From an uncultured Rubrivirga sp. (GTDB lineage Bacteria; Actinomycetota; Actinomycetes; S36-B12), in contig CAZJYN010000001.1 of the NCBI GenBank assembly GCA_964550285.1, positions 50,620 through 114,619 of the forward strand: DNA of 64,000 bases. The letters run 5' to 3'. Numbering within the stretch: the first letter of the stretch is position 1; each line of letters starts with the position of its first letter. The notes under the pieces were generated by a model. The model made no database searches. It was not told the DNA's origin and saw only the letters and a list, made by a program, of their open reading frames with translations. Both the position numbers and the translations under genes were made by a program. Below are positions 8,043-55,634 of the stretch, piece after piece.

Positions 8043-8096
8043 ATTGGCAGCCCGACCCGCCACCGCGGGCTAGGCTGGGGCTAGCCGAACACCCCG

Positions 8097-8292
8097 AGCG
8101 GGAGAGTGCGGTGGCCCACGCCAGGGTCACAGCCGCCGAAGGAGCAATAACCCCGACAAACTCTCAGGCGCCGGTACCGCCTGGGGTGGGCGACTCTGGA
8201 AAAGGAACGTTCGTTCCTACCGACGGTGCAAGGTGCGCTTGGTCGCACCGAAGCTCTCAGGTCGCGTTCGTCGCGGGTAACAGAGGGGGAGC
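8097..8292 (+). promoter_or_regulatory. tandem glycine riboswitch (two aptamers)
   Basis: Aptamer 1: cgggagag...cgccgaaggagcaa...ctctcaggc. Aptamer 2: ctctggaaaagg...ccgacggtgcaa...caccgaagctctcaggt...acagagg. Lies directly upstream of gcvP; SD aggaga at 8316. Confidence 0.85.
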
Positions 8293-29650: not shown

Positions 29651-31015
29651 CTACATACTCGCTAGGAGGCGATCGACACGATCGTCGACGCTAGCGAAGG
29701 GGTCCTTACACAGCACGGTGCGCTGGGCTTGGTCGTTTAATTTCAGGTGCACCCAATCGACGGTGAAGTCGCGGCGGCGCTCTTGAGCCCGCCGGACGAA
29801 ATCGCCACGCAACTTCGCCCGGGTGGTCTGCGGTGGAACGTTCTTCGCCTCGAATACCTCCGGATCGTGGGTTACCCGGCTGGCCAAACCACGCCGCTCC
29901 AGCAGGTAGAAGAGCCCGCGATCGCGGCGGATGTCGTGGTAGGCCAGATCCAACTGCGCGATGCGGGTATCGGACAGTGATAGGTCGTGCTTGTCCATGT
30001 ACCGCTGCAGCAGATTGCGCTTGATCACCCAATCGATCTCAGTGTCGACTGCGCCGAAGTCTTGGGCCTCCACAGCCTTCAGCGAGCGCTCCCACAGGTC
30101 CAGGACTCGGGCGGTGGTCGGATCCGAACGCAAACCCCGACGGTCCACGTACTGGGTCACCTTGTCCAGGTATTCCCACTGCATCTGCAGCGCCGACAGT
30201 TCCCGGCCGGTGGACAACGGCACCTGACGGGTTCCGGTCGTGTCGTGGCTGATCTCCCGGATAGCGCGGATCGGGTTTTCGAAGGACATGTCCCGCATGA
30301 CCATGCCCGATTCGAGCATTCGCAGCACCAGATCGGCTGCACCGACTTTCAGCAACGCGGTGGTCTCACTCATGTTGCTATCCCCCACGATGACGTGGAG
30401 TCGGCGGTATAGGTCGGCGTCGGCGTGCGGCTCATCGCGGGTGTTGATGATCGGACGCGAGCGGGTCGTCGCGCTCGAGACGCCCTCCCAGATGTGGTCC
30501 GCCCGCTGGCTGACGCAATACACGGCGCCGCGGGGAGTCTGCAGGACCTTCCCCGCCCCGGTGACTATCTGTCGGGAGATCAGGAACGGGATGAAGCCCT
30601 CGGCCAAGGACAGGAAGTCGGTGGACCGCTCGACTAGGTAGTTCTCGTGGCAGCCGTAGGAGTTACCGGCCGAATCGGTGTTGTTCTTGAACAAGTAGAT
30701 GTCGCCGGTTATGCCTTCCTCGCGCAAGCGCCCCTCGGCGTCCATGCACAAACCCTCGAGGATGCGCTCACCGGCCCGATCGTGGGTGATGAGCTGTTCG
30801 ATGCTGTCGCACTCGGCGGTGGCGTACTCCGGATGCGACCCGACGTCGAGGTACAGGCGCGATCCGTTGCGCAAGAAGACGTTGCTGCTGCGTCCCCAGG
30901 CCACCACTCGACGGAACAAGTAGCGGGCGACCTCATCGGGACTCAGCCGCCGCTGACCACGAAAAGTGCACGTGACGCCGTATTCGGTCTCGATACCGAA
31001 TATCCGTCGATCCAT
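29651..31015 (-). CDS. pafA: Pup--protein ligase PafA
   Basis: [14 protein letters not shown]..., 454 aa, conserved throughout the PafA/Dop family, lacking the Dop-specific insert. Confidence 0.95.
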
Positions 31016-31021
31016 CGCTCC

Positions 31022-31027
31022 ACTGTA
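31022..31027 (-). promoter_or_regulatory. -10 hexamer TACAGT, predicted leaderless promoter of pafA
   Basis: Reverse complement of actgta; 6-nt spacer to ATG at 31015. Confidence 0.45.
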
Positions 31028-31066
31028 GGGCCGTGCTGGCTCGGAGGCGACTAGGCAGCCGGGCGA

Positions 31067-31756
31067 CTAGGCAAGCAGCGCCTCGAGCTCAGCCCCCTCG
31101 ATCCGACGGAATGCCCGACGCGGCCGGGTTCGATCCAAGATCGCAACCTCCAGGTCCGAGGCTGGCAGTTCGCGGGCCTCCTCGGTGCCGTGCTCACCGA
31201 GGGCGTGAACGGCCTGGCGCAGGGAGGTAGCCAGGTCCTGACCGGGCGCCCAGGCCGCGGAAAGCGCTCCGGCGATCGCTTCGGCGGACCCACCCATGGC
31301 CACGAAGCCGTGCTCGTCGGCGACCGAGCCATCGAAGGTCAGTCGGTACAACTGATCGCCGGCCTCGTCCGCACCCACCTCGGCCACCACGATCTCGACC
31401 TCGAAGGGCTTGGCGGTCTCGGTGAAAATCGATCCCAGGGTCTGGGCGTAGGCGTTCGCCAGGCTCCTGACGGTGACGTCGGTGCGGTCGTAGGAGTATC
31501 CCCGCATGTCCGCTAGCCGGATCCCGGCTACTCGCAGGTTCTCGAATTCGTTGTATTTGCCAACCGCGGCGAAACCGATTCGATCGTAGATCTCACTGAT
31601 CTTGTGCAGCGCCTTGGAGGGGTTCTCCGCTACGAACACCACACCATCTGCGTATTGCGCAACGACGACGCTTCGTCCTCGCGCGATGCCCTTGCGCGCG
31701 AAGTCCGCCTTGTCCTTCATGATCTGTTCGGGCGAGACGTAGAACGGAACGCTCAT
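31067..31756 (-). CDS. prcA: 20S proteasome alpha subunit
   Basis: [29 protein letters not shown]...; ATGA overlap with prcB. Confidence 0.95.
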
Positions 31757-32574
31757 GCAAGATCACCTCCCACTTGAGCCCATGGACCGCCCGGTCGACG
31801 CATGCGTTCGGCGAGCATGTCCTCGGCAGCTTGGGCCAGTGCGTCCTCCTCGATCATCTGCACACCTTCGGGACGCACGACAGCCACCACCGGGAAGATT
31901 CTCCGAGTGAGGTCGGGTCCGCTGGTGGCGCTGTCATCGTCGGCGGCGTCGTACAAGGCCTCGAGGGCAACACGTACCGACTGTTCGGCCGTTGCATCGA
32001 AGTGGAACAACTTCTTCAACGACCCCCGAGCGAAACTCGATCCGGAACCGACGGCGTAGTAATCGTGCTCCTCGTAGCGTCCACCGGTGACGTCGTAGGA
32101 GAAGATGCGTCCGCGGTCGGCGTCGTCGTCGTAGCCAGCGAACAGGGGAACCACGGCGAGTCCCTGCATCGCCATTCCCAGATTGCCCCGCAGCAGTGTC
32201 GAGAGCCTGTTGGCCTTACCGTCCAGTGATAACGAGGTGCCTTCGATTTTCTCGTAGTGCTCCAACTCGACTTGGAACAGTCGGACCAGTTCGACAGCGA
32301 TACCCGCGGTGCCGGCGATGCCCACCACCGAATGGCTGTCTGCCTCGAAAACCTTTTGGACATCGCGCTGGGCGATGACGTTTCCCATGGTCGCCCGGCG
32401 ATCCCCGGCCATGACGACACCACCGTCGAAGCACAACGCGACGATGGTCGTGCCGTGTGGGGCCTCGACCGAGCCGACGGTATTCACGGGCGTGGGTCCT
32501 CCGATCGATGCCAGGAAGTCGGCGAAGGAAGGCGATCCCAGGGCGCGATAACTCGGCGGGAACTGGGCTGTCAC
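31753..32574 (-). CDS. prcB: 20S proteasome beta subunit (with propeptide)
   Basis: Propeptide then the catalytic Thr in HG/TTIVAL; GTG start overlaps the pup stop. Confidence 0.95.
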
Positions 32575-32783
32575 TGCCCACCCTTTTGCACGAACGACTT
32601 CACGAAGTCCTCGGCGTTTTCCTCGAGGACGCCGTCGATCTCGTCGAGGATGGAATCGACGTCATCGTCGAGTGCTTCCTTCTCCTCGGTCGAGGTCGCC
32701 GATGCGCTCGGTTCCTCGAGGACTTCGTCGGTCTCCTCGCGCTTGGAAACCTTCTTTTGCTCAGCGTTCTCCCTGGCGGCCAT
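32571..32783 (-). CDS. pup: prokaryotic ubiquitin-like protein Pup
   Basis: 70 aa, acidic, ends ...FVQKGGQ (the C-terminal Gln requires Dop deamidation). Confidence 0.95.
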
Positions 32784-32800
32784 CTACCCAGGGTATCTGG

Positions 32801-34321
32801 CTACCCCTCGGTCAGCGCGTCGATCAGGGCGCTGGCGTCGGCGCTGGCGTCGAGTAGCTCGCCGACGTGATCCTTCGTGCCGCGGGTCGGCTCGAGGGTG
32901 GGCACCCGCAGCAGCGTGTCGCGTTCGGGTAGGTCGAACACCACCGAATCCCACGAGGCTGCCGCGACGCTTTCGGGGTACTGGCTCATACATCTCCCGC
33001 GGAAATACGCGCGGGTATCGGTAGGTGGATCGTCGCACGCTTGCTGCACGGTGGGCTCATCGAACATCCGCTGCAAGCGGCCCCGCTGTTCGAGCCGAGC
33101 CGCCAATCCCTTGTCCGGCCGGATATCGGCGTATTGCAGATCGACGAGGGCCAATCGGGCGTCGTCCCATGGCAGGTCGTCGCGGCGGACGTAACCCTCG
33201 AGCAGACCCAACTTGGCCACCCAGTCGACGGTGTCGGAGACGCTGGATGGATCCGTGGCAAGCGCATCGAGGTGGGCGCCCCACTTGGTGAGGACGTCCT
33301 TGGTCTGTTCGTCGTATTGCGAACCCCATCGCGAATCGCAGTACTCCCAGGCGCGCTCTAGGAACTCGCGCTGCATCTGCACCGCTGTCCATCGGCGACC
33401 ACCACTGAGGGCGATCTCGTGCTGTAGGTCGAGGTCATGGGAAACCCGATGCATCTCGGCCACCGGTTCGAGGGGCATGGCATCCAAGGGCCCGAGGAAT
33501 CCATCCTCGATCATCGAGAGCACGATCGCGGTCGTGCCCATCTTCAAGTAGGTGGCGGTGTCGCTTAAGTTGGCGTCGCCCACGATCACGTGCAAGCGGC
33601 GGTACTTCTCCGGATCGGCGTGCGGTTCGTCCCGCGTGTTGATGATCGGCCGCTTCAAGGTGGTTTCCAGCCCCACCTCGACCTCGAAGAAGTCAGCGCG
33701 CTGGCTGAGTTGGTACTGGGGGGTGCGCCCGTCTTGCCCGATGCCCAGGCGACCGGCTCCGGTGAATACCTGTCGCGAAATGAAGAAGGGCGTGAGGTGC
33801 CGGACCACTTCGGAGAAGGCGGTGGCGCGCCGCATCAGGTAGTTCTCGTGGCATCCGTATGAGGCGCCCTTGTTGTCGGTGTTGTTCTTGTACAACACGA
33901 TGTTCGCGCCACCGGGAACCGCGGCTGCGGCGCCCGATGCGGCGTTCATGATGTTCACACCTGCCCGATCCCACAAGACCGCATCACGTGGGTTGGTGAC
34001 TTCTGGGGTGGAGTATTCGGGGTGTGCGTGATCGACGTACAGCCGTGCTCCGTTCGGCAAGATGACGTTCGCCAGTCCTAGGTCCTCGTCGGTCAGCTGG
34101 GACGGATCGGCCTCGGCCCGGGTCATGTCGTATCCCCGCGCATCGCGAAGCGGCGATTCTTCGTCGTAGTCCCAACGCGGTTTCGTGGCGCCAGGCGCGG
34201 AGAGCAGATGGGCGTAGGCGTTGACGATCTGCGAGGAGGTCACCATCGCATTCATCGTGGGATGCCCGGGCACGGTGATCCCGTACTCGGTTTCGAGCCC
34301 CATGATGCGATGAACGCTCAT
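32801..34321 (-). CDS. dop: Pup deamidase/depupylase Dop
   Basis: MSVHRIMGLETEYGI..., 506 aa, PafA paralogue with an internal insertion. Confidence 0.95.
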   Translation of the reverse strand: MSVHRIMGLETEYGITVPGHPTMNAMVTSSQIVNAYAHLLSAPGATKPRWDYDEESPLRDARGYDMTRAEADPSQLTDEDLGLANVILPNGARLYVDHAHPEYSTPEVTNPRDAVLWDRAGVNIMNAASGAAAAVPGGANIVLYKNNTDNKGASYGCHENYLMRRATAFSEVVRHLTPFFISRQVFTGAGRLGIGQDGRTPQYQLSQRADFFEVEVGLETTLKRPIINTRDEPHADPEKYRRLHVIVGDANLSDTATYLKMGTTAIVLSMIEDGFLGPLDAMPLEPVAEMHRVSHDLDLQHEIALSGGRRWTAVQMQREFLERAWEYCDSRWGSQYDEQTKDVLTKWGAHLDALATDPSSVSDTVDWVAKLGLLEGYVRRDDLPWDDARLALVDLQYADIRPDKGLAARLEQRGRLQRMFDEPTVQQACDDPPTDTRAYFRGRCMSQYPESVAAASWDSVVFDLPERDTLLRVPTLEPTRGTKDHVGELLDASADASALIDALTEG

Positions 34322-34353
34322 CTGCTTGCCGTTGTCTTAGTCGACCGCAGTGG

Positions 34354-36009
34354 CTACAGGTACTGGCCGGTGTTGGCCACGTTGTCGATGCTGCGACCGG
34401 GACCGCCTCCGGTCTTGCCCTGGATCAGCGTGCGGATGAAAACGATCCGCTCGCCCTTCTTACCCGAGATGCGCGCCCAGTCATCCGGATTCGTGGTGTT
34501 GGGCAGGTCCTCGTTCTCGCGGAACTCATCCACGCAGGCATCCAGCAGGTGCTGCACGCGGATGCCCTTCTCGCCGGTGTTCAAGAAGTCCTTGATCGCT
34601 GACTTCTTGGCGCGGGAGACGATGTTCTCGAGCATGGCGCCGGAGTTGAAGTCTTTGAAGTACAAGATCTCCTTGTCGCCGCCTTCGTAGGTGACCTCCA
34701 AGAACCGGTTCTCCTCCGACTCGGCGTACATGCGCTCGATCGCCCGCTGGATCATCGCAGAACACGCGAGGTCGGGGTCTCCCCCGTGCTCAGCTAGGTC
34801 CTCCCGATGGATCGGTAGTCCCGGGACCAGGTACTTGCTCATGATGTCCTGCGCGGACTCCGCATCGGGACGTTCGATCTTGATCTTCACGTCCAACCGA
34901 CCCGGACGCAGGATCGCTGGGTCGATCATGTCCTCGCGGTTCGAGGCGCCGATGACGATGACGTTCTCCAGGCTCTCCACGCCGTCGATCTCACTGAGCA
35001 ATTGCGGCACGATGGTGTTCTCGACATCGCTGCTGACGCCGCTTCCGCGGGTGCGGAACAGCGAATCCATCTCATCGAAGAACACGATCACGGGCATGCC
35101 CTCGGACGCCTTCTCGCGGGCCCGCTGGAAGACGAGTCGGATGTGCCGCTCGGTTTCGCCGACGTACTTGTTGAGCAGTTCGGGACCCTTGATGTTCAAA
35201 AAGTAGCTCTTGGCCTCGAGCTTGCCGGTCTTCTCGGCCACCTTCTTTGCTAGCGAGTTGGCCACGGCCTTGGCGATCAGCGTCTTGCCGCATCCGGGCG
35301 GGCCGTAAAGCAAGATGCCCTTGGGGGCGCGCAGATCGTGCTCGGCGAACAGATCGGCGTGCACGTACGGCAGTTCGACGGCGTCGCGGATGGAGTCGAT
35401 TTGTGTTCCTAGGCCACCGATTTGCCCGTACCCGATATCGGGCACCTCCTCGAGGACGAGTTCCTCCACCTCGGCGCGGGGCACCCGCTCGATCACGTAG
35501 CCGCTGCGCAGGTCGCACAGCAGTGCCTCTCCAGCGCGGAGCACCTCACCGTGAAGTGGGGTCCCGACGCGCACCACCCGCTCTTCGTCGGCGCCGGCGA
35601 CGACCACGCACCGATCGGGACCGAGCATCTCCTTGAAGGTCACGATGTCGCCGACGACCTCGAACTCGCGCTTGGCCACCACGTTCATCGACTCGTTCAA
35701 GACGACCTCTTGACCGGCGAGGAGTTGATCGGCACCGACCGCCGGGCTGACCGCCACCCGCATCTTGCGCCCGGAAGCGATGACGTCGACCGAGCCATCC
35801 TCGTGCGCCTCGACGAAGGTCCCGTATCCACTAGGTGGCTCCCCCAGTCGATCGACCTCGGCCTTCAGTGCAACGATTTGCTCGCGCGCGTCTCGCAGCG
35901 TGGTGATCAGCCGCTGATTGTGGTCCTTTTGGGCCGCTAGTTCACCTCGCACCTCGCTCAGTGCGGTCTCTAGGGCCAGCAGCCTGCTCTCCGGGCTCGG
36001 ATTGCTCAC
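34354..36009 (-). CDS. arc: proteasome-associated AAA ATPase ARC/Mpa
   Basis: N-terminal coiled coil, Walker [10 protein letters not shown]-terminal ...NTGQYL proteasome-docking motif; SD gaggagg before the GTG start. Confidence 0.95.
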
Positions 36010-36043
36010 CGGAACCTCCTCGCTCGGTGGACGACAACCGACC

Positions 36044-37048
36044 CTAACCCGCTTCGGGCTCGGCCACCTGCTCAGCCGCCTGCTCAGCCGCCTGCTCGCG
36101 CACCCGACGCCCGCCCGGTCCGTCGTAGTCGGGGCCGTAGGCGCCAGGAGCCGGGCGCCGCTTGCGCTCGGGAGCCCGTTGACCAGGTGCCATGGCCCGG
36201 CTGGCTACCAAGAACCCGGTATGCCCGGACATCCGGTGATCTGGACGCACCGCCAGCCCGTCCAGGTGCCAGGTGCGAACGATGGACTCCTCGGCTCGGG
36301 GCTCGATCCAGCGTCCGCTCTCCCGCATGGTCTCCACCAGACGGGACATTTGGGTGGTGGTCGCCACGTAAGCCACCAGCGAGCCGCCCGGGCGCAAGGC
36401 GGACGACACGACATCCAGGCATTCCCACGGCGCCAGCATGTCCAAGACGACGGCGTCCCAGGAGGCCGGCTCGAATGATCCGAGCGATCCGAGCGATACG
36501 TCTTGCAGGTCGTCTTCAAGCAGTTGCCACGAAGTGGGCCATCCGCCGAACCAGCGACAGATGTTCTCCGCGGCTACCTCGGCGAAGTCCGAGCGCCGCT
36601 CGACGCTGAGCACCGTGCCGCTGGGGCCCACAGCCCGCAGCAGATAGCAAGAAAGGGCACCGGATCCGGCACCGGCCTCCAGGACGCAGGCGCCGGGCCC
36701 GAGGTCGGCGAGGGACACGATGCGCGCCGCGTCCTTGGGGTAGATGACCGCCGCCGCGCGGGGCATCCCAAGGACGTAGTCGTCCAGGCCCGGCCGCTGC
36801 ACGAGGAACTCGATGCCGCGCGAGGAGGTAACTACGCTGCCTTCGGCTGCGCCGATGAGGTGGTCATGGGCCACTTGGCCGCGATGGGTATGCAAGATCT
36901 CCCCGGGCTTGGCGGTGATCGTCTTCTTGGTGCCACGCGGATCGGTGAGTTGCACGAGATCACCCGACGCGATCGTCCCGGACGCCCGGGGTGCGATCTG
37001 CACGTGTTCGCGCGGCGCCGGTGGGTGCGTCGGACGCTTGCGAGCCAT
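36044..37048 (-). CDS. trmI: tRNA (adenine58-N1)-methyltransferase TrmI
   Basis: Start at ATG 37048 ([10 protein letters not shown]...) within ORF 36044..37432. SAM motif [12 protein letters not shown]. Rv2118c-like position next to arc. Low-complexity C-terminal tail. Confidence 0.85.
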
Positions 37049-37101
37049 TCGGGCGAGGATAGTGGGCGTGGCATCAACCACCTCGTGGGTGGAACCGCCC
37101 C

Positions 37102-37107
37102 TACAGT
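37102..37107 (+). promoter_or_regulatory. -10 hexamer TACAGT, predicted leaderless promoter
   Basis: TANNNT; 6-nt spacer to GTG 37114. Confidence 0.45.
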
Positions 37108-37113
37108 GCGGGG

Positions 37114-37929
37114 GTGTTCCCGAAAACCCTCTCGCCCTCGCGTGCCGGGGACTTCTTGACTTGTCCGCTGCTTTATCGGTTGCGGGTGGTGGACAAGCTT
37201 CCCGAGCCGCCATCGGCGGTTGCGATCCGTGGAACCTTGGTGCACGCAGCGCTGGAGGACCTGTTCGCATTGCCGGCCGATGAACGCACGATCGAGCGCG
37301 CGGGCGAGCTATTCGCAGATCGATTCGGCGAACTGGCCCTAAGCGATCCCCCTGCGGCCGAGGCGCTACTCGAAGGACTCGATGAGGCCACAACGGCAAC
37401 ACCCGAAGCCGCTGCAGCAGCGGTGCTGGCACCGGCCCGGACGCTGCTGGAGACGTACTTCACCCTGGAGGACCCCACCCGCCTGGACCCCCACGCCCGA
37501 GAACTCGCGGTCAGTGCCGAACTGGAATCCGGGCTCACCGTTCGAGGCTTCATCGATCGGGTGGATCGGGCCCCCGATGGGCGCATTCGACTCGTCGACT
37601 ACAAGACCGGTCGCAGCCCCGGCTCCGGCTTCGAGTCCAAGGCGATGTTCCAGATGCGCTTCTACGCGCTGGTGTGGTGGCGCATGACCGGAGACATCCC
37701 TACTCGGTTGCAGTTGCTTTATCTCAAGGATGGCCAGGTGATCCATTACGACCCGAATGCCGAGGACCTCGCGGCGACCGAGCGCAAGATCCTGGCGATC
37801 CGCGAAGCCATCGCCAAGGCCATGGGCGCCGGATTCCAACCCTCACCTTCCGGGCTGTGCGCCTACTGCGCCTTCCATGAGTTCTGTCCCGCCCAAGGGG
37901 GGACGACCCCGCCGATGCCGATTGCCTAA
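37114..37929 (+). CDS. PD-(D/E)XK (RecB-family) nuclease with C-terminal Cys cluster (Rv2119-like)
   Basis: GFIDRVDRAPDGRIRLVDYKTGRSP nuclease motif; C-terminal CAYCAFHEFC suggests a Fe-S/Zn site together with the N-terminal C (DFLTCPLLY). Confidence 0.8.
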   Translation: MFPKTLSPSRAGDFLTCPLLYRLRVVDKLPEPPSAVAIRGTLVHAALEDLFALPADERTIERAGELFADRFGELALSDPPAAEALLEGLDEATTATPEAAAAAVLAPARTLLETYFTLEDPTRLDPHARELAVSAELESGLTVRGFIDRVDRAPDGRIRLVDYKTGRSPGSGFESKAMFQMRFYALVWWRMTGDIPTRLQLLYLKDGQVIHYDPNAEDLAATERKILAIREAIAKAMGAGFQPSPSGLCAYCAFHEFCPAQGGTTPPMPIA

Positions 37930-42550: not shown

Positions 42551-43579
42551 ATGGACACTCGACGCACGCTCGGCATGGTCGGATTCGGGCGCATGGGAGC
42601 AGGCTTGACCACCCGTGCGATCGCTGCCGGCACGGACGTGGTGGTCGTCGACCCCGATCCGCAAACCCCAGAGCGCGCCCGATCGCTCGGGGCCGGCACG
42701 GCCGAATCATTAGCAGCCCTCGTCGATGCGCTGCCGAGTCCTCGAACGGTCTGGATCATGGTTCCAGCCGGATCGATCACCGATGCTGTCATCGATGAAC
42801 TCGGCGGCCTGCTATCCCCCGGTGATGTCCTCATCGATGGCGGCAACTCCAACTACCGGGACGACATCCACCACGCGCAAGCGCTCGCCGACAAAGGCGT
42901 CGAGTTCATCGACGTCGGGACTTCGGGTGGTGTCTGGGGCGCCGAACGTGGCTTTTGCCTGATGATCGGTGGACCGACGGAGCCCGTCCAAGCGCTATCG
43001 GACCTTTGGGACGCCCTCGCGCCGGGCGAGCAAGCGGCCTCGCGGACACCCGGTCGAACCGGCGATGCCTCTCCGGCCGAGCGGGGCTGGCTGCATTGCG
43101 GGCCCAGCGGTGCGGGGCACTTCGTGAAGATGGTGCACAACGGCATCGAATATGCCCTCATGGCCGCCTACGCCGAGGGCTTGTCGATCCTCGAGCACGC
43201 AAACGCAGGAGCCGCGACGGGGGCAACGGACTCCGAGACCGCTCCCCTGTCCCATCCCGAGTACTACCGCTACGACCTCCCGATCGCCGATGTCGCCGAG
43301 GTCTGGCGGCGCGGCTCGGTCATCGGCTCGTGGCTGCTGGATCTAACTGCCGCGGCGTTGGTCGAGGATCCACAGCTCGAGGCGTTCAGCGGACGGGTAT
43401 CGGACTCCGGTGAGGGCCGGTGGACGGCGATCGCCGCCATCGAGGAAGGGGTCCCGGCTCCGGTGATCACCGCGGCGTTGCTGGAGCGGTTCGCAACGCA
43501 AGGCACGGACGTGTTCGCCGGTCAGCTCCTCAGCGCGATGCGGGCGCAGTTCGGCGGGCACGCCGAGAAGCCCGGCTAG
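42551..43579 (+). CDS. gnd: 6-phosphogluconate dehydrogenase, decarboxylating (short Gnd-like form)
   Basis: [12 protein letters not shown] Rossmann motif, [14 protein letters not shown]; SD ggagg upstream. Confidence 0.85.
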
Positions 43580-44838
43580 TTACCTTCCGGCTCCAACCGC
43601 ACACCGAGCAGCGCGTCGCTCGCGGCGGCGATGAGGGCACCGGTTTCGCTAGCGGCACGCCCCTCCGCGTTCGAGGCCGACGATGATCGCAGGGCGCGGT
43701 GCGCCCAATCGTCCAACGCGTCCAGCGCAGCCGGGGAGCGTAGGTCGTCGGCCAAGGCTTCGCGCATCCGCTCGAGGGTTGACTCAGCCGGTGGCGGGTC
43801 GGACACGGCTATCGCCGCACGCAAACGGGCTAGCCGCTCGGCGGCCCCTTCGAGACCATGCGGCGTCCAGGCCCAGTCGGTTCGGTAGTGGTGGGCCAGC
43901 AACGCCAAGCGGATCGCCATGGGATCCACACCCTCGTGTCTGAGCGCCGATACGAAGACCAGGTTCCCGCGCGACTTGCTCATCTTCTGGCCCTGCCAAG
44001 CGACCATGCCCGAGTGGACGTAGTGGCGCGCGAAAGGCCACTGTTCGGTGATCATCTGGGCTTCCGAAGCGCCCATCTCGTGATGCGGGAAGGCAAGATC
44101 CGAGCCGCCGCCTTGCACGTCGATCGTCATGCCCAGGAAGTCCAACGCGATGGCCGCACACTCGATGTGCCACCCGGGACGGCCATGACCAAGGGGCGTA
44201 TCCCACGCCGGTTCATCGGCACGTGCCGATTGCCAGACCAGGCAGTCGAGTGGGTGTTCCTTGCCGGGTCGGTCGGGGTCTCCACCGCGTTCGGCGAACA
44301 AGGCGATCATCGTCTCCTCGTCCAAGTGCGTGACCGAGCCGAAGTTCGGATCACTGCGCACGCGGAAGTAGAGGTCGTCGTCTACGGCATAGACCTGGCC
44401 CTTTTCTTGCAGTCCGGCGACGTAACCGGCCACGGATGGAATGGACTCAACCGCCCCGATGTAATCGTTCGGCGGCAGGACCCGTAGCGCCTGCATATCC
44501 TCGCGAAAGAGCGCGGTCTCGCGGTCTGCGATCGATCGCCAATCCTGTCCGGTGGCGACGGCTCGCTCCAGCAGTGGATCGTCGATGTCGGTGACGTTTT
44601 GCACGTAGCGGACGTCGTGCCCGCTATCGCGCCAGATGCGATGCAGCAGGTCGAAGGCGACGTAGGTGTTGGCGTGGCCGATGTGGGTTGCGTCGTACGG
44701 AGTGATGCCACAGACGTACATCGTTGCGACGGGACCGGGGGCACTCGCTCGCACCTGACCGGTGGCGGTATCGAACAGTCGAAGAGGTGGGGCGTTTCCC
44801 GGCAGTTCCGGCAACTGCACGCTAGGCCAGGCTCGCAC
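43576..44838 (-). CDS. mshC: cysteine--1-D-myo-inosityl 2-amino-2-deoxy-alpha-D-glucopyranoside ligase (mycothiol ligase)
   Basis: CysRS paralogue of 420 aa: [19 protein letters not shown] (HIGH), KMSKSRGN. Lacks the anticodon-binding extension. Confidence 0.9.
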
Positions 44839-44844
44839 GGGGTG

Positions 44845-44850
44845 ACCCTA
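44845..44850 (-). promoter_or_regulatory. -10 hexamer TAGGGT, predicted leaderless promoter of mshC
   Basis: Reverse complement of acccta; 6-nt spacer to GTG at 44838. Confidence 0.45.
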
Positions 44851-44904
44851 CCGACGCACCGATCGCTGATGGGCCGCACCGGCATCTGCTGGTCGCGTGC
44901 CGGG

Positions 44905-45684
44905 CTAGAACACCGGCCACGGAATCGCCGGCCAGTCCTGGCTCGGCGCCGGGAATCGTCCGGTGCGCAGCAGTTCGGCGACCCGACCCCGCAACGCCCG
45001 CACCTCGCCGCGGTCCAGCCACCGCTCGAGTTCGGGAAGACCCTCTGCCAAGCACTGATCCAAGCCCGTGAGTGCACCTAGGGCGGCGTCGTCGATGGTG
45101 CGCTCGGCCCAACCCCACAGCACCGTGCGCAGTTTCGGCTCGACCGACAACGTGACGCCGTGATCTACGCCCCACAGTCGCCCGGAGGTGTCGGTGATGA
45201 CGTGGCCGCCCTTGCGATCACCGTTGTTGATGACGGCGTCGAGCACGGCCATCTGCTGCAGGCGGGGATCATCGGCGTGCACGAGGACCAGCGGATTTCC
45301 CAACCCGTCGCTGGCCCGAAGTACCGTCAGCCAACCTTCGGGCACCTGGTCGGGGGCGACCACATCCACCAGCCTGGCCTCATCGTCCTCCGGCACCCAC
45401 ACTTGGAGCATCCCGGCACCGGCTGGACCGTCCTCGCGCCAAACCGTCGGGGGGATCAAGCCGAATCCCAAGATCCGATCGACCTCGTAGCAAGCGATCT
45501 CACGACCGGTAAGCGTCCCCTCGGGGAAATCCCACAATGGGCGTTCACCACGCCTGGGCTTGTAGACGATCGGGACGCCGGTTTCCAACGTGCATCGCAG
45601 GGTCGCGTTGCTGGCCCCGAATACACGACCTTCGATGTCGAAGGCGCATGAGCGCAACGCTTCAAGCGCGCTATCTGGGTTCAT
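44905..45684 (-). CDS. SCO1664 family protein (PI3/PI4-kinase-like fold, Rv2133c-like)
   Basis: Start at ATG 45684 (ATGA overlap with the upstream stop). Motifs VYKP, NNGDRKGGH and GVDHG resemble lipid-kinase catalytic/activation loops. Confidence 0.75.
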   Translation of the reverse strand: MNPDSALEALRSCAFDIEGRVFGASNATLRCTLETGVPIVYKPRRGERPLWDFPEGTLTGREIACYEVDRILGFGLIPPTVWREDGPAGAGMLQVWVPEDDEARLVDVVAPDQVPEGWLTVLRASDGLGNPLVLVHADDPRLQQMAVLDAVINNGDRKGGHVITDTSGRLWGVDHGVTLSVEPKLRTVLWGWAERTIDDAALGALTGLDQCLAEGLPELERWLDRGEVRALRGRVAELLRTGRFPAPSQDWPAIPWPVF

Positions 45685-46250
45685 CCCCGGCGCTTGTAAC
45701 CGTTGGCCCGCGCACATATGTGCCCTTGAGGATCCAGCGGCTGCTGGCAAAACGGGCAGGTCGGTCGCCCGCTGGAGATGACCGAGCGGGTCCGTTCGGC
45801 GAACGCACGCGCATAGGGCGCGGAAAGCCACACCCGCAGGGTGTCTGGGCCGTCTGCGTCGTCGTCGGCGAGTTCGGGAGGTTCGAAATCATCTTCCTCG
45901 GAGACGGCATGTGCCTCGATGACGACCAGGTTGTTGGCCTCGTCCCAGCCCAATGCCATCGCTCCGACGCGGAACTCCTCTTCGAGGGGAACATCGAGGG
46001 GCGATTCATCGCTCAATTCCACCGGCGCTTTCGCGGGTATAGCTTCCTCGGGGGCACGACTGCCGCGTACCTCGTCGAGCAATTGATCGATGCGCTCGGC
46101 CAGGACGCTGGCCTGTTGCTTCTCGCACGAGGCGGTCGTGACCTCCGATCCTGAACGTGCCTGCAGGAAGAAGGTGCGCTCCCCCGGCATACCCACGGTG
46201 CCCACGACGAAGCGCTCCGGTAGGCGGTATTCGAAGATCCGACGATTCAT
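45681..46250 (-). CDS. DUF3090 domain-containing protein (Rv2134c-like)
   Basis: MNRRIFEYRLPERFVVGTVGMPGERTFFLQARSG...; C-terminal CPFCQQPLDPQGHIC zinc-knuckle-like motif. Confidence 0.75.
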   Translation of the reverse strand: MNRRIFEYRLPERFVVGTVGMPGERTFFLQARSGSEVTTASCEKQQASVLAERIDQLLDEVRGSRAPEEAIPAKAPVELSDESPLDVPLEEEFRVGAMALGWDEANNLVVIEAHAVSEEDDFEPPELADDDADGPDTLRVWLSAPYARAFAERTRSVISSGRPTCPFCQQPLDPQGHICARANGYKRRG

Positions 46251-46951
46251 CGCCCGGCTCCCCCGCCGACTGCAGCATCCGAGCCGGCTGCCTTCTTGCC
46301 GGTCTTGCCCTTCCTACGCGGATGCAAGAAGGACAGGTCCGATCCGGTGTCGTTGGTGCGGATGACGAACGGACGAAGGGTGGTGTACTCGATAATGCAC
46401 ATCGAGCCCGGATCGACCGATATCCGCTGGAACTGGTCGAGGTGGATGCCCAGTGCATCTGCGACGATCGCCTTGATGACGTCGCCGTGGCTGACCATCG
46501 CATACGTGGCCTTCTCGCCCAATTCGGTGTTGTAGGAGCGCACCGCGTCGACCGCCCGCTGTTGCATCGCCCGCATCGATTCACCACCGGGGAATGTAAC
46601 GGCGCTGGGGTGGCCTTGAACCTGCTTCCACAACGGTTCCTTAGTGAGCTTCTTGAGTTCGCGTCCCGTCCACTCCCCGTAGTGGCACTCGACGATCCGA
46701 TCGTCGATGCGCAGATCCAGCGGATTGCCGTTATCGCTTTGGATCCGGGCGATGGCTTCCGCGGTCTGCTGCGTGCGCTCGAGCGGCGAGGAGATCAAAC
46801 CCGTCAGGCGGACGCCGGCGAGGCGTCCGGCTACCCGATCGGCCTGCTCGAGCCCGGTGTCGTCGAGATCGACACCCGGGCTCGTGCCCGCCAGCACTCC
46901 CTGGGCGTTCGCCGCTGTGCGGCCATGACGGATCAGCAGGCACGTTGGCAC
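46247..46951 (-). CDS. histidine phosphatase family protein (MSMEG_4193/Rv2135c-type putative phosphomutase)
   Basis: LIRHGRTAAN (RHG) and VSHGDVI catalytic His motifs; 4-nt overlap with the DUF3090 gene. Confidence 0.85.
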   Translation of the reverse strand: MPTCLLIRHGRTAANAQGVLAGTSPGVDLDDTGLEQADRVAGRLAGVRLTGLISSPLERTQQTAEAIARIQSDNGNPLDLRIDDRIVECHYGEWTGRELKKLTKEPLWKQVQGHPSAVTFPGGESMRAMQQRAVDAVRSYNTELGEKATYAMVSHGDVIKAIVADALGIHLDQFQRISVDPGSMCIIEYTTLRPFVIRTNDTGSDLSFLHPRRKGKTGKKAAGSDAAVGGGAGR

Positions 46952-46957
46952 GACGCC

Positions 46958-46963
46958 ACCTTA
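46958..46963 (-). promoter_or_regulatory. -10 hexamer TAAGGT, predicted leaderless promoter of the phosphomutase-DUF3090-SCO1664 operon
   Basis: Reverse complement of acctta; 6-nt spacer to GTG at 46951. Confidence 0.45.
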
Positions 46964-47074
46964 AGAGGTGGACTGCACTGCGGCAGGTTGACGCAGCGCA
47001 GGTCACAGTGTGCACGAGGCGACGTTCGCGGTCAGCGCAAATCCGCTCGGGCGAAGTGCCCGCACAGTGGCAAG

Positions 47075-48121
47075 ATGGCACCCGTGATCCGGGGCGTGGG
47101 TGTCTACCACCCGGATGGATCGGTCGATGGAATCGACGATTCAGCACACCACGTGCCCGCCGACCATGACTTCACCGGTGAGCAAACCCGAGAACTACTC
47201 GTGCGCATGCGCGATCAAGCCCTGGATCTGCCCGGCGGCTTCGCCTGGATCGGACTGTTGGAGCCCACCAAGGCGGAGTTGGCGATGGTCGCGGAGATCT
47301 TCGCGCTGGAGCCCCTCCAGGTTGAGGACGCTGCGAACCCACGGCAACGGGCCAAGGTGGATATCTCCGAGGAGGGTGAACTCTTCACGGTGCTGAAGAC
47401 CCTCGGATACGACGGTGAATCCAGCGAGGTCAAGACCGGGCAGGTGGCCATCTTCACCGGGCCCGGGTACGCGATCACCGTTCGACACGGTGAGCACGGA
47501 GATCTCACGGCTGTCCGTAGTCGGATCCGCGCAAGCAAGGTGCTACGTACCCACGGACCGCTATCGGTCCTGTACTCGATCATGGACACGACGGTCGACG
47601 GATACCTCGCGGTAGTGGACGAGGTGACCGAGGACGTAGGTGAAGTCGAGACGTCGGTTTTCGGCATGACCCCCTCACCGAGCGTTACGCAGCTGATCTA
47701 CGAGCTCAAGCGCGAGAACATGGTCGTCCGCCGGGCCGTGCACCCACTATTTCGAGTGGCACACGATTTCGCCGACGAAGTGTTCGTGGCCATCCCTGAG
47801 GATCTGCGGCCGTATTTCCGTGACGTCGGAGAGCACATCCTGCGCGTCAACGATGCCGTCGAATCGATGGACTCGCTCCTGATGACGATGCTTATGGCAA
47901 GCACGGCGATGCGTGACCTGCAACAAAACGCCGATGCGCGCAAGATCTCCGCCTGGGTTGCGATAGCCGCTGTTCCTACCGTTGCGGGCGGAATTTACGG
48001 AATGAATTTCGAGTACATGCCCGAGTTGTCCTGGCAGTGGAGTTACCCGGTGGTGCTGGCGGTGATCATCGGCGTCTGCCTGCTGCTGTTTCGGGGATTC
48101 AAGCGCAACGGCTGGCTCTAG
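47075..48121 (+). CDS. corA: magnesium/cobalt transporter CorA
   Basis: Start at ATG 47075 inside the artefactually long ORF 46157..48121. YGMNFEYMPEL (GMN motif) between two C-terminal TM helices. Confidence 0.9.
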   Translation: MAPVIRGVGVYHPDGSVDGIDDSAHHVPADHDFTGEQTRELLVRMRDQALDLPGGFAWIGLLEPTKAELAMVAEIFALEPLQVEDAANPRQRAKVDISEEGELFTVLKTLGYDGESSEVKTGQVAIFTGPGYAITVRHGEHGDLTAVRSRIRASKVLRTHGPLSVLYSIMDTTVDGYLAVVDEVTEDVGEVETSVFGMTPSPSVTQLIYELKRENMVVRRAVHPLFRVAHDFADEVFVAIPEDLRPYFRDVGEHILRVNDAVESMDSLLMTMLMASTAMRDLQQNADARKISAWVAIAAVPTVAGGIYGMNFEYMPELSWQWSYPVVLAVIIGVCLLLFRGFKRNGWL

Positions 48122-54662: not shown

Positions 54663-55634
54663 TCACGCTTCACTGGAGAACACCCGAGCCCGCAGTGCCT
54701 CACGTCGGTTCTCGAAACGGTCGACCTGTTGGTCCATCTCCGCGAGGTATGCCGCTAGTTCCTGACGCGCCTGTTCACCCGCGGGCCCGAGATCCGTGCG
54801 CTCGAAGACCCTCCACTTGCGCAGTACCGGCCACAGCACTTCGTCGCGGTGCTGCTTGAGGTCGTAGATGCCCGCGACCGCGATTTGGACGGCCTTGCGG
54901 GTGAATCCGTCGATGCCGTGCCCCGGCATGGCGAAGTCGCGGACGCTGTCCCAGACCGCCTGCATGGTGGCATCGGGTGCGATGTCGAAGGCGGCGGCGA
55001 GCACATTGCGGTAGAAGACCATGTGCAGGTTCTCATCGAGCGCGATCCGCTGTAGGAGCCGCTCGGCGGTCTCATCACCGGTCGCGGCGCCGGTGTTGCG
55101 GTGGCTGACACGTGTTGCGAGTTCCTGGAACGAGACATAGGCCAAGCCGGCGAGAATCCCCGGGTGGATCGGCTGGAAGCCCGCTGTCATGTGCACCATG
55201 CGGGCGCGCTCCAATTCGATCGGATCCACGGCGCGGGTTACCACCAGGTAGTCCCGGATCGCCGTTCCGTGTCGGTCCTCTTCAGCGGTCCACCGGCCGA
55301 CCCACTCACCCCACGGCCCGTCGAAACCGAAGATGTCGGCGATCGCATGGTGGTAGCTGGGCAGGTTGTCCTCGGTCAACAAGTTGATGATCAAGCTGGT
55401 TCGCGCTGCCTCGGAGAACTTCAGTTCCTCTTCGGTCCACTCGCGACCACCAAGCGGACCGGCGAAGTCCTCACCCTGGCTCCACGGCACGTACTCATGC
55501 GGGAACCATTCCTTGGCCTGACGCAGGTGCCGGTCGAGTTCCCCAGCCACCACCGGCTCGAGTTCCCACAGCAAACCCATGGTCTCGCCGCTGACGATCC
55601 CATCGGATGTGTGCCGTTCGTGAGTGCTGGTCAT
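54663..55634 (-). CDS. desA: acyl-ACP desaturase (DesA-like di-iron enzyme)
   Basis: Di-iron motifs LLTEDNLPSYHH, WTAEEDRHG, ALDENLHMVFY. Confidence 0.9.
   Translation of the reverse strand: MTSTHERHTSDGIVSGETMGLLWELEPVVAGELDRHLRQAKEWFPHEYVPWSQGEDFAGPLGGREWTEEELKFSEAARTSLIINLLTEDNLPSYHHAIADIFGFDGPWGEWVGRWTAEEDRHGTAIRDYLVVTRAVDPIELERARMVHMTAGFQPIHPGILAGLAYVSFQELATRVSHRNTGAATGDETAERLLQRIALDENLHMVFYRNVLAAAFDIAPDATMQAVWDSVRDFAMPGHGIDGFTRKAVQIAVAGIYDLKQHRDEVLWPVLRKWRVFERTDLGPAGEQARQELAAYLAEMDQQVDRFENRREALRARVFSSEA

Follow-up and report, generated by a model that had tools for sequence, protein, structure and literature searches.

A kinase-DUF3090-phosphatase trio beside mshC in an uncultured actinobacterium, a candidate phosphate-handling module of the mycothiol pathway

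Actinomycetes rely on mycothiol as their main protective thiol, and in mycobacteria it has an influence on drug susceptibility. Beside uppP and mshC, the gene for the cysteine:glucosaminyl-inositol (Cys:GlcN-Ins) ligase, stands a set of three genes which has been catalogued as Rv2135c-Rv2133c, as MSMEG_4193-4191 and as SCO1664 with its neighbours, and which codes for a histidine phosphatase, a DUF3090 protein and a kinase-like protein. NCBIfam holds all three families; the TIGR03848 description (NCBIfam/TIGRFAMs), as we take it, already speaks of a three-gene system with a phosphatidylinositol-kinase-like protein, and the kinase and the phosphatase are both presumably retained in Mycobacterium leprae. 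SCO1664 is among Gao and Gupta's actinomycete signature proteins, and was described by Chandra and Chater in 2013 as "invariably closely linked" to mshC (PMC4255298). Searching the literature by locus tags and family names, we came across no functional work on SCO1664 or DUF3090; the only biochemistry was an assay of the phosphatase Rv2135c. Transposon mutants of Rv2134c were depleted under rifampicin below the minimum inhibitory concentration (log2 fold change -1.42), and MSMEG_4192 was weakly over-represented after dibucaine treatment and is listed in a ClpC1 interactome.

Here we analysed a stretch of 64,000 nucleotides from an uncultured actinobacterium (the window), in which the trio and mshC are arranged as follows:

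46951..46247, minus strand: phosphatase gene (His_Phos_1/TIGR03848, MSMEG_4193 family), 234 aa, GTG start, first of the trio
46250-46247, minus strand: ATGA start/stop overlap of the phosphatase and DUF3090 genes, 4 nt
46250..45681, minus strand: DUF3090 gene (TIGR03847), 189 aa
45684-45681, minus strand: ATGA start/stop overlap of the DUF3090 and SCO1664 genes, 4 nt
45684..44905, minus strand: SCO1664-family kinase gene (TIGR03843), 259 aa from the ATG at 45684
44838..43576, minus strand: mshC (TIGR03447), 420 aa, downstream of the trio

The best explanation of this trio is that it encodes one phosphate-handling module. It shows no substantive difference from the catalogued set, having the same families, gene order, 4-nt overlaps and position by mshC and uppP, and is a correct re-identification of a catalogued, functionally uncharacterised module. 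A preliminary reading made from the letters of the window (hereafter the sequence-only reading) had put the trio forward as the strongest candidate for an undescribed pathway; the trio is no new discovery, since NCBIfam contains all three families and the linkage to mshC was published in 2013 (PMC4255298). The same reading held that no biochemistry had been assigned; this stands for SCO1664 and DUF3090, but not for the phosphatase, as Rv2135c has been assayed (PMC3866925). Its gene calls were accurate: every open reading frame position was confirmed, as was each coordinate of the three coupled minus-strand genes upstream of mshC, of their overlaps and of the 66-nt gap between SCO1664 and mshC (44904-44839). 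The family assignments are firm. The phosphatase scored 288.1 bits with TIGR03848 against a curated NCBIfam cut-off of 203.85 (Pfam PF00300, His_Phos_1, E=4e-47); the DUF3090 protein, over its full length, 235.9 bits with TIGR03847 (cut-off 117.25) and 216.8 with PF11290 (27); the SCO1664 protein 317.7 bits with TIGR03843 (172.4), covering model positions 3-253 of 253; and MshC 618.1 bits with the equivalog TIGR03447 (485.1), with Pfam tRNA-synt_1e. An Rfam scan revealed no RNA elements within or around the trio.

In its fold and in its catalytic elements, none of which is missing, the SCO1664 protein corresponds to active ATP-dependent kinases of the kind represented by phosphatidylinositol 4-kinase (PI4K) type II and Fam20. 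Its motifs are:

45559..45561, minus strand: codon of K42, the lysine of VYKP predicted to bind ATP, invariant and aligned with the KP motif of Fam20
45202..45228, minus strand: catalytic-loop motif NNGDRKGGH (N153-H161), invariant except for G/A at 155 and aligned with 'GNMDRH' of Fam20
45157..45165, minus strand: DHG (D174-H175-G176), metal-binding loop and DFG equivalent, invariant, with the same DHG in Caenorhabditis elegans Fam20
44908..44934, minus strand: C-terminal tail WPAIPWPVF, with W251, P252, P255, W256, P257 and F259 invariant

Conservation was judged on 33 sequences with identities down to 53%, among which K42, E62, D149, N153, N154, D156, R157, K158, G159, G160, H161, D174, H175 and G176 are invariant. 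The kinase-like motifs singled out by the sequence-only reading (VYKP, NNGDRKGGH and GVDHG) are thus conserved. The protein was modelled with AlphaFold2 (predicted local distance difference test, pLDDT, 87.9; predicted template-modelling score, pTM, 0.89), residues 252-259 of the tail falling below a pLDDT of 50; the tail, of the form WPxIPWPxF, may have a docking role. Foldseek placed PI4KIIalpha (4hne; E=2.9e-7, TMq 0.58) first, together with Fam20C (~1e-6), followed by PI4KIIbeta, CtkA, Vps34, PI3K alpha and Rio2. When the family profile was compared with the sequences in the PDB, Fam20A/C/B alone were matched, at a borderline E=0.013, with KP...E...PPTV.R, NxDR and DHG in common; at the level of sequence nothing else connects the family to solved structures. 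The Pfam Fam20C model (PF06702) did not match the window protein, and PF00454 (PI3_PI4_kinase) gave it 16.9 bits, below the gathering threshold of 27.1; the latter model weakly matches 32 of the 33 family members (best E=2.9e-5), and the catalytic-loop region aligns with it at positions 135-177. The loops DRKGGH and DHG resemble the DRxxxN/DFG of PI3/PI4 kinases but are non-canonical. The previously noted resemblance to PI3/PI4-type kinases has thus gained a structure-based link to PI4K type II, whereas its Pfam match is sub-threshold. The protein is thus a minimal and atypical kinase of the PI4KII/Fam20 kind, and almost certainly an active one.

Its catalytic loop, NNGDRKGGH, is comparable to the xNxDRxxxx of PI4KII. 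It departs from PI4KIIalpha in its size (259 aa), its 16% identity, the H161 where an asparagine is expected, the DHG in place of DxG, its soluble and acidic character and its obligate partner gene. The isoelectric point (pI) is 4.7, and there is no obvious membrane-binding segment. The Fam20 kinases, namely Fam20C (a protein kinase), Fam20B (a xylose kinase) and Fam20A (a pseudokinase), have the fold in common with SCO1664, but are eukaryotic, secreted, ~400 aa long and equipped with extra domains. Since the Fam20 match is borderline and Fam20 substrates range from proteins to sugars, this likeness does not fix a substrate; nor does the fold by itself reveal it, because enzymes acting on lipids, on sugars and on proteins all occur in the PI4KII/Fam20 clade.

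The SCO1664 kinase family comprises 578 clusters at 50% identity (E <1e-30), and the named members that were sampled belong to the Micrococcales and Propionibacteriales. Two apparent fusions, P0289 (DUF3090-SCO1664) and P0282 (SCO1664-MshC), were rejected as frameshifted gene calls with out-of-frame Arg/Ala stretches. A metagenomic protein of 3184 aa from outside the window (P0348) is a giant with multiple kinase domains, in which about eight SCO1664-profile stretches occur along with PI3_PI4_kinase (four stretches), Fam20C, HipA_2, ABC1 and DUF4347.

The other enzyme of the trio has the full set of histidine-phosphatase catalytic residues. The features located were:

46922..46930, minus strand: RHG catalytic motif (R8 H9 G10), retained by 90% or more of 66 sequences
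46253..46279, minus strand: C-terminal tail motif DAAVGGGAG, after a Lys/Arg-rich linker and past the end of the TIGR03848 model

In the 66 sequences on which conservation was judged, R59, E88 and H155 (of SHGD) are invariant, completing the catalytic set of a branch-1 histidine phosphatase; both catalytic histidines reported earlier, in RHG and SHGD, are present and conserved. The closest solved relatives are the phosphoserine phosphatase PspA (4ij5) and CobC, with alpha-ribazole phosphatase also near. PspA, CobC and GpgP (Rv2419c) have the RHG...R...E...H core in common with the window protein, which differs from them in falling below all their equivalog cut-offs and in possessing its own basic linker and DAAVGGGAG tail. 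This conserved C-terminal motif is a new detail: [VI]GGG[AST]G occurs in the last 25 residues of 50 of the 66 homologues and GGG in 57.

Rv2135c, which we judge from its family name and its uppP neighbour to be the Mycobacterium tuberculosis member of this family, showed no phosphoglycerate mutase activity, acted as a weak acid phosphatase on p-nitrophenyl phosphate (pNPP) with a Km of 10.6 mM, was inactive on glucose 6-phosphate, ADP and 3-phosphoglycerate, and was found in membrane fractions (PMC3866925). The assayed protein carried a C-terminal His tag. As this tag adjoins the conserved tail motif, the weak published activity may be an artefact. The cofactor-dependent mutases need their C-terminal tail as a lid over the active site, for mutase and not for phosphatase activity. 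By score the window protein is not a cofactor-dependent phosphoglycerate mutase (dPGM), all the dPGM models giving 21-87 bits against cut-offs of 82-378. The term "phosphomutase" used in the sequence-only reading is a provisional family name and is unsupported, given the scores and the lack of phosphoglycerate mutase activity in Rv2135c, the latter being subject to the caveat of the C-terminal tag.

The DUF3090 protein is the most conserved of the three. Its mean column identity is 68% over 29 sequences, and in one locus (L012) it is 72% identical to that of the window, compared with 46-52% for the kinase and phosphatase. In the model (pLDDT 83.9) two units, each of a beta-sheet plus helix, precede a C-terminus of low confidence, which bears a CCHC knuckle and a basic, Arg-rich tail:

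45714..45758, minus strand: putative zinc knuckle CPFCxQPLDxxGHxC (C165, C168, H177, C179), the four ligands invariant in the 29 sequences

The spacing of the knuckle is CxxC-x8-HxC and its pLDDT is low in the metal-free model; from its ligands it probably binds zinc. With a pI of 4.6 and about 13 net negative charges the protein is acidic, and its loop 116-136 stands at -11; this argues against a general nucleic-acid-binding role. Neither the single sequence nor a profile found any match among PDB sequences, and a fold search of the BFVD viral models was likewise negative. The sole PDB match in Foldseek was a weak one to Pur-alpha (E=0.017, probability 0.90, TM 0.36-0.45, root-mean-square deviation 12.9 A). 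Some sources label DUF3090 a "repeat protein", and this was rejected, hhalign finding no internal sequence repeat; an assignment to the PUR (Pur-alpha) repeat proteins failed on the poor fold match, the absence of a repeat and the pI of 4.6. A candidate Fam20C-type SxE site in the acidic loop was discarded because it is not conserved, and no invariant exposed Ser/Thr was identified in the protein.

A DUF3090-profile scan of species-representative genomes gave at least 596 confirmed relatives among 600 matched stretches, and the comparison of loci rests on the best 80 of these (L001-L080), all on Actinomycetota contigs. Of these 80 the closest, L001, shows 91-97% identity to the window. The DUF3090 and SCO1664 genes are adjacent in all 72 loci with enough flanking sequence, the phosphatase gene adjoins DUF3090 in 60 of 69, and in 52 of 65 mshC comes directly after SCO1664 in the same orientation, which bears out the linkage of SCO1664 to mshC noted from the window and published earlier (PMC4255298). 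Six loci have the mshC-SCO1664 pair inverted as a unit, so that it faces the phosphatase-DUF3090 pair. The 4-nt overlap of DUF3090 and SCO1664 is kept in all the relatives examined for it (L082-L089), namely those of ~55% identity, Dermacoccus and Cutibacterium; that of the phosphatase and DUF3090 genes is kept in the relatives of ~55% identity, and in Dermacoccus these two genes are instead 9 nt apart. Dermacoccus, one of the Micrococcales, has the full trio and mshC.

Elsewhere the set is divided. In nine loci of Saccharopolyspora, Actinopolyspora and Halosaccharopolyspora no phosphatase gene was found within 8 kb of the DUF3090-kinase pair, and in L066 the pair lies between genes for an LD-carboxypeptidase and a beta-lactamase-family protein. 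On a contig of the Cutibacterium acnes type (L088, 6423-7801) the pair, with its 4-nt overlap, is situated between an aldo-keto reductase gene and a nicotinamide mononucleotide (NMN)-transporter/hisE/hisG region, with neither His_Phos_1 nor mshC within 7 kb. Because the two genes are adjacent in 72 of 72 loci and stay coupled even apart from the phosphatase and mshC, the invariant core is DUF3090 plus kinase. Genes inserted between SCO1664 and mshC in related loci code for MDMPI_N, AMP-binding, YHYH and metallo-beta-lactamase-fold proteins. In L051 (9279-9878) and L062 (9314-9898) a DinB-like gene of the mycothiol type, with an MDMPI_N domain (mycothiol maleylpyruvate isomerase, N-terminal), comes directly after SCO1664 and is followed, before mshC, by the gene of an AMP-binding enzyme on the opposite strand. 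Inositol monophosphatase or cysQ genes were not found in this interval.

Several records of metagenome-assembled genomes (L002, L004-L006, L008, L033, L039, L042 and L054) are named Rubrivirga, Rubricoccaceae or Bifidobacterium breve. These names look like taxonomic mislabels, as the loci have the actinomycete mshC neighbourhood at 53-94% protein identity to the window.

A scan of the region for sigma-70 -35/-10 sites gave none and no meaningful terminators, and the frequency of TANNNT with its phylogenetic footprint was used instead. Two hexamers were located:

46963-46958, minus strand: -10-like hexamer TAAGGT, 6 nt before the phosphatase GTG at 46951, promoter of the leaderless type for the trio
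44850-44845, minus strand: -10-like hexamer TAGGGT, 6 nt before the mshC GTG at 44838

In the window, which has 64.8% G+C, TANNNT is scarce (51 and 53 per strand). In related loci it ends 4-9 nt upstream of the start (6-7 nt in the rows listed) for 55 of 62 phosphatase and 62 of 64 mshC genes, and since it is rare in the window and kept at the same offset, the hexamers are not due to chance. This geometry is that expected for actinobacterial leaderless transcripts. Both leaderless promoters predicted in the sequence-only reading are accordingly present, with a footprint in the relatives, and the trio constitutes one transcription unit and mshC, in tandem with it, another, both having a conserved promoter of the leaderless type. 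Their promoters being separate and conserved, the two do not form one obligatory operon.

What the module acts on is less clear. The sequence-only reading suggested a phospho-transfer step on a small molecule that contains inositol or a sugar, which is plausible; the nearest relatives of the kinase are not only sugar and lipid kinases but also protein kinases (Fam20C, CtkA). We tentatively favour, with a probability of roughly 0.3, the reading that the trio supplies an inositol kinase of two subunits and the MshA2 phosphatase, both working at the inositol 3-phosphate of the mycothiol pathway. DUF3090, binding zinc, would serve the kinase as a subunit or adaptor, and together with SCO1664 would phosphorylate free or recycled myo-inositol to 1L-inositol 1-phosphate (1L-Ins-1-P, equal to 1D-Ins-3-P), the acceptor required by MshA. 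After glycosylation the phosphatase would strip off the same phosphate, turning N-acetylglucosaminyl-inositol 3-phosphate (GlcNAc-Ins-3-P) into GlcNAc-Ins (the MshA2 step), which would then pass through MshB to MshC, encoded next door.

We favour this reading because the genes that the pathway lacks are just two, one for a phosphatase and one for a kinase. The gene of MshA2 was "not yet identified" in 2011 (PMC3241215), and a paper of 2026 lists the enzyme but names no gene. For mycobacteria no candidate inositol kinase is known (PMC4587543); the Corynebacteria and many Micrococcales are without ino1, and the source of their inositol is not known. The MshA2 and myo-inositol kinase steps thus call for one phosphatase and one kinase, at the same phosphate position and in the pathway of mshC, from which we infer the link to the trio. 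A second reason is that PI4KII, the best structural relative of the kinase, phosphorylates the inositol ring, and the PI4KII/Fam20 clade includes kinases of ring hydroxyls, of inositol (PI4K) and of xylose (Fam20B). A third is a mycobacterial precedent for a glycosylated phospho-acceptor: GpgP (Rv2419c), of the same histidine phosphatase superfamily, specifically dephosphorylates the product of a phospho-acceptor glycosyltransferase and barely acts on pNPP (PMC3240985). In line with this, the nearest characterised relatives of the phosphatase (PspA, CobC and alpha-ribazole phosphatase) use small molecules, and Rv2135c is poor on generic substrates (Km ~10 mM). The linkage counts, the joint inversion of mshC and SCO1664 in six loci and the MDMPI_N insertion in two also speak for it. 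Transposon mutants of Rv2134c are depleted under rifampicin, to which mycothiol-deficient mutants are also sensitive.

A number of points weigh against it. The assignment of the substrate would rest on association, and part of the linkage to mshC may be inherited gene order. Most of the loci keep a ten-gene block around DUF3090, extending from an M20 peptidase gene via uppP to pgi, in the same order, and mshC has its own conserved promoter (62/64), so that adjacency is weaker as evidence of shared function. The DUF3090-kinase pair is found away from the phosphatase and mshC in C. acnes and Saccharopolyspora. A partner protein is seldom needed by kinases of small molecules, and the reading leaves unexplained a DUF3090 protein at least as conserved as MshC. 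All three proteins have conserved terminal tails, which points to a protein complex, and with which a regulatory switch would fit equally well. Plants and archaea have myo-inositol 3-kinases, but those known are ribokinase-family enzymes and differ in fold from SCO1664. To our knowledge, screens for mycothiol deficiency or ethionamide resistance have hit mshA-D and not the trio, whose genes we take to be non-essential in M. tuberculosis; if the phosphatase is MshA2, it must be redundant.

The module may instead act, as a kinase plus a phosphomutase or phosphatase, on a sugar, a cyclitol or another metabolite unrelated to mycothiol, the adjacency to mshC then reflecting an ancient, stable block near the Pup-proteasome genes. 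We regard this as a serious possibility, though short of likely. The ten-gene order is kept at only ~50% protein identity, trio and mshC each have a conserved promoter of their own, and the pair is apart from mshC in Cutibacterium and Saccharopolyspora. In a phosphomutase form of this explanation, the tail of the phosphatase recalls the lid tail of the mutases, and the sole assay was made with a C-terminally His-tagged enzyme. It accounts poorly for the inversion of mshC together with SCO1664 in six loci and for the two loci in which an MDMPI_N gene stands between them, and the family has been called an actinomycete signature, the mycothiol pathway being found in that same group.

Alternatively, the substrate may be a protein, with the kinase marking DUF3090 or MshC (for example in its KMSKS loop), the phosphatase reversing the mark, and the CCHC knuckle perhaps sensing the thiol redox state. 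The layout of coupled genes for a kinase, a phosphatase and a small, very conserved protein resembles that of partner-switching modules; DUF3090 is the most conserved protein (72% compared with 46-52% in L012), all three have conserved tails, of which those of the kinase and DUF3090 are predicted to be disordered, and the basic tail of the phosphatase and the acidic loop of DUF3090 are complementary in charge. The structural relatives of the kinase include the protein kinases Fam20C and CtkA, and MshC retains the KMSKS motif, whose serine is phosphorylated in GltX and TrpS by HipA and HipT. These kinases have a distantly related fold and a small co-encoded partner, and SCO1664 stands beside MshC, a class-I synthetase paralogue; the trio differs in having no significant HipA match and no DNA-binding antitoxin, it is not expected to behave as a toxin-antitoxin pair, and the likeness is a functional speculation. 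HipA_2 was detected in 2 of the 33 SCO1664 members (best E=0.046, not significant), HipA itself is absent from the top 50 Foldseek matches, and the partner is DUF3090 and not of the HipB/HipS type. As the nearest characterised relatives of the phosphatase are small-molecule enzymes, DUF3090 offers neither an invariant exposed Ser/Thr nor a conserved SxE-like site in its acidic loop, and no report of MshC phosphorylation was found, we consider a phospho-switch rather doubtful. Its fuller, redox-responsive form, in which a minimal Fam20/PI4KII-like kinase guided by the CCHC knuckle would act on MshC or DUF3090 to control mycothiol synthesis and the phosphatase would erase the mark, seems unlikely.

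It is also improbable that the trio turns over phosphatidylinositol 3-phosphate (PI3P), as a bacterial phosphatidylinositol (PI) 3-kinase together with the missing phosphatidylinositol phosphate (PIP) phosphatase of the bacterial PI pathway. In favour of it, a phosphatidylinositol kinase heads the fold matches, the bacterial route to PI through PIP requires a dephosphorylation step, and Rv2135c was found in membrane fractions. Morita and co-workers reportedly observed in 2010 that actinomycetes make PI3P transiently and remove it with a vanadate-sensitive phosphatase; histidine phosphatases are vanadate-sensitive. All three proteins are soluble, however, with an acidic kinase (pI 4.7) that has no obvious membrane-binding segment, and the tie to mshC and the role of DUF3090 would be left unexplained.

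Processing of nucleic-acid ends in the manner of a polynucleotide kinase-phosphatase, with DUF3090 as a PUR-like single-strand binder, is very unlikely: the Pur-alpha match (E=0.017, probability 0.90), the zinc knuckle followed by an Arg-rich tail and the adjacent rank of Rv2134c and rnhC (RNase H/acid-phosphatase) in the rifampicin transposon screen are set against a strongly acidic DUF3090 (pI 4.6, about -13), a poor fold match (TM 0.36-0.45, 12.9 A) and the lack of any known kinase of the SCO1664 fold that acts on polynucleotides. A HipA-like toxin-antitoxin or anti-phage defence module, suggested by the distant relationship of the kinase fold to HipA and CtkA, is effectively excluded by distribution and by the PADLOC result (no match for any of the three proteins), the trio being housekeeping, vertically inherited, near-universal in actinomycetes, stable in its neighbourhood and without a DNA-binding antitoxin.

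In the literature found, two phosphate steps that feed mycothiol have no gene assigned, the MshA2 phosphatase and the inositol kinase (the latter seen as an activity only). A catalytically competent kinase and phosphatase conserved beside mshC are candidates for these steps, and their association has been visible for more than 10 years. Should the substrate be a protein, the trio would represent a new kind of bacterial Fam20/PI4KII-like signalling unit, and as a phospho-switch a housekeeping counterpart of the HipA-type control of synthetases. Either way DUF3090 would gain its first function. The conserved tail of the phosphatase serves as a warning that C-terminal tagging may have crippled Rv2135c in the published assay.

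Some further features of the window were recorded. The stop codons of mshC (minus strand) and of a convergent gene for a 6-phosphogluconate-dehydrogenase-like protein (42551-43579, plus strand) overlap by 4 nt (43576-43579), so that a terminator cannot fit between them. On the other side of the trio, the mechanically called open reading frame of CorA (46157-48121, plus strand, 654 aa) is too long; since the CorA domain begins at ~47.2 kb and the CorA proteins of relatives have 336-345 aa, the true start lies at ~47.1 kb, divergent from the trio promoter. A complete Pup-proteasome cluster (29651-37432, minus strand) is situated ~6 kb past mshC on the low-coordinate side:

29651-31015, minus strand: PafA Pup ligase
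31067-32574, minus strand: two proteasome subunits
32801-34321, minus strand: second protein of the Pup-ligase family, likely Dop
34354-36009, minus strand: proteasomal AAA ATPase
36044-37432, minus strand: TrmI-like methyltransferase

Rfam identified a glycine riboswitch aptamer (RF00504, 54.8 bits) at 8089-8189 on the plus strand and a match to the antisense small RNA ASdes (RF01781, 52.5 bits) at 55213-55280 on the plus strand. The latter lies inside a fatty-acid desaturase gene (54663-55634, minus strand), to which it is antisense as in M. tuberculosis, though the organism is not a Mycobacterium.

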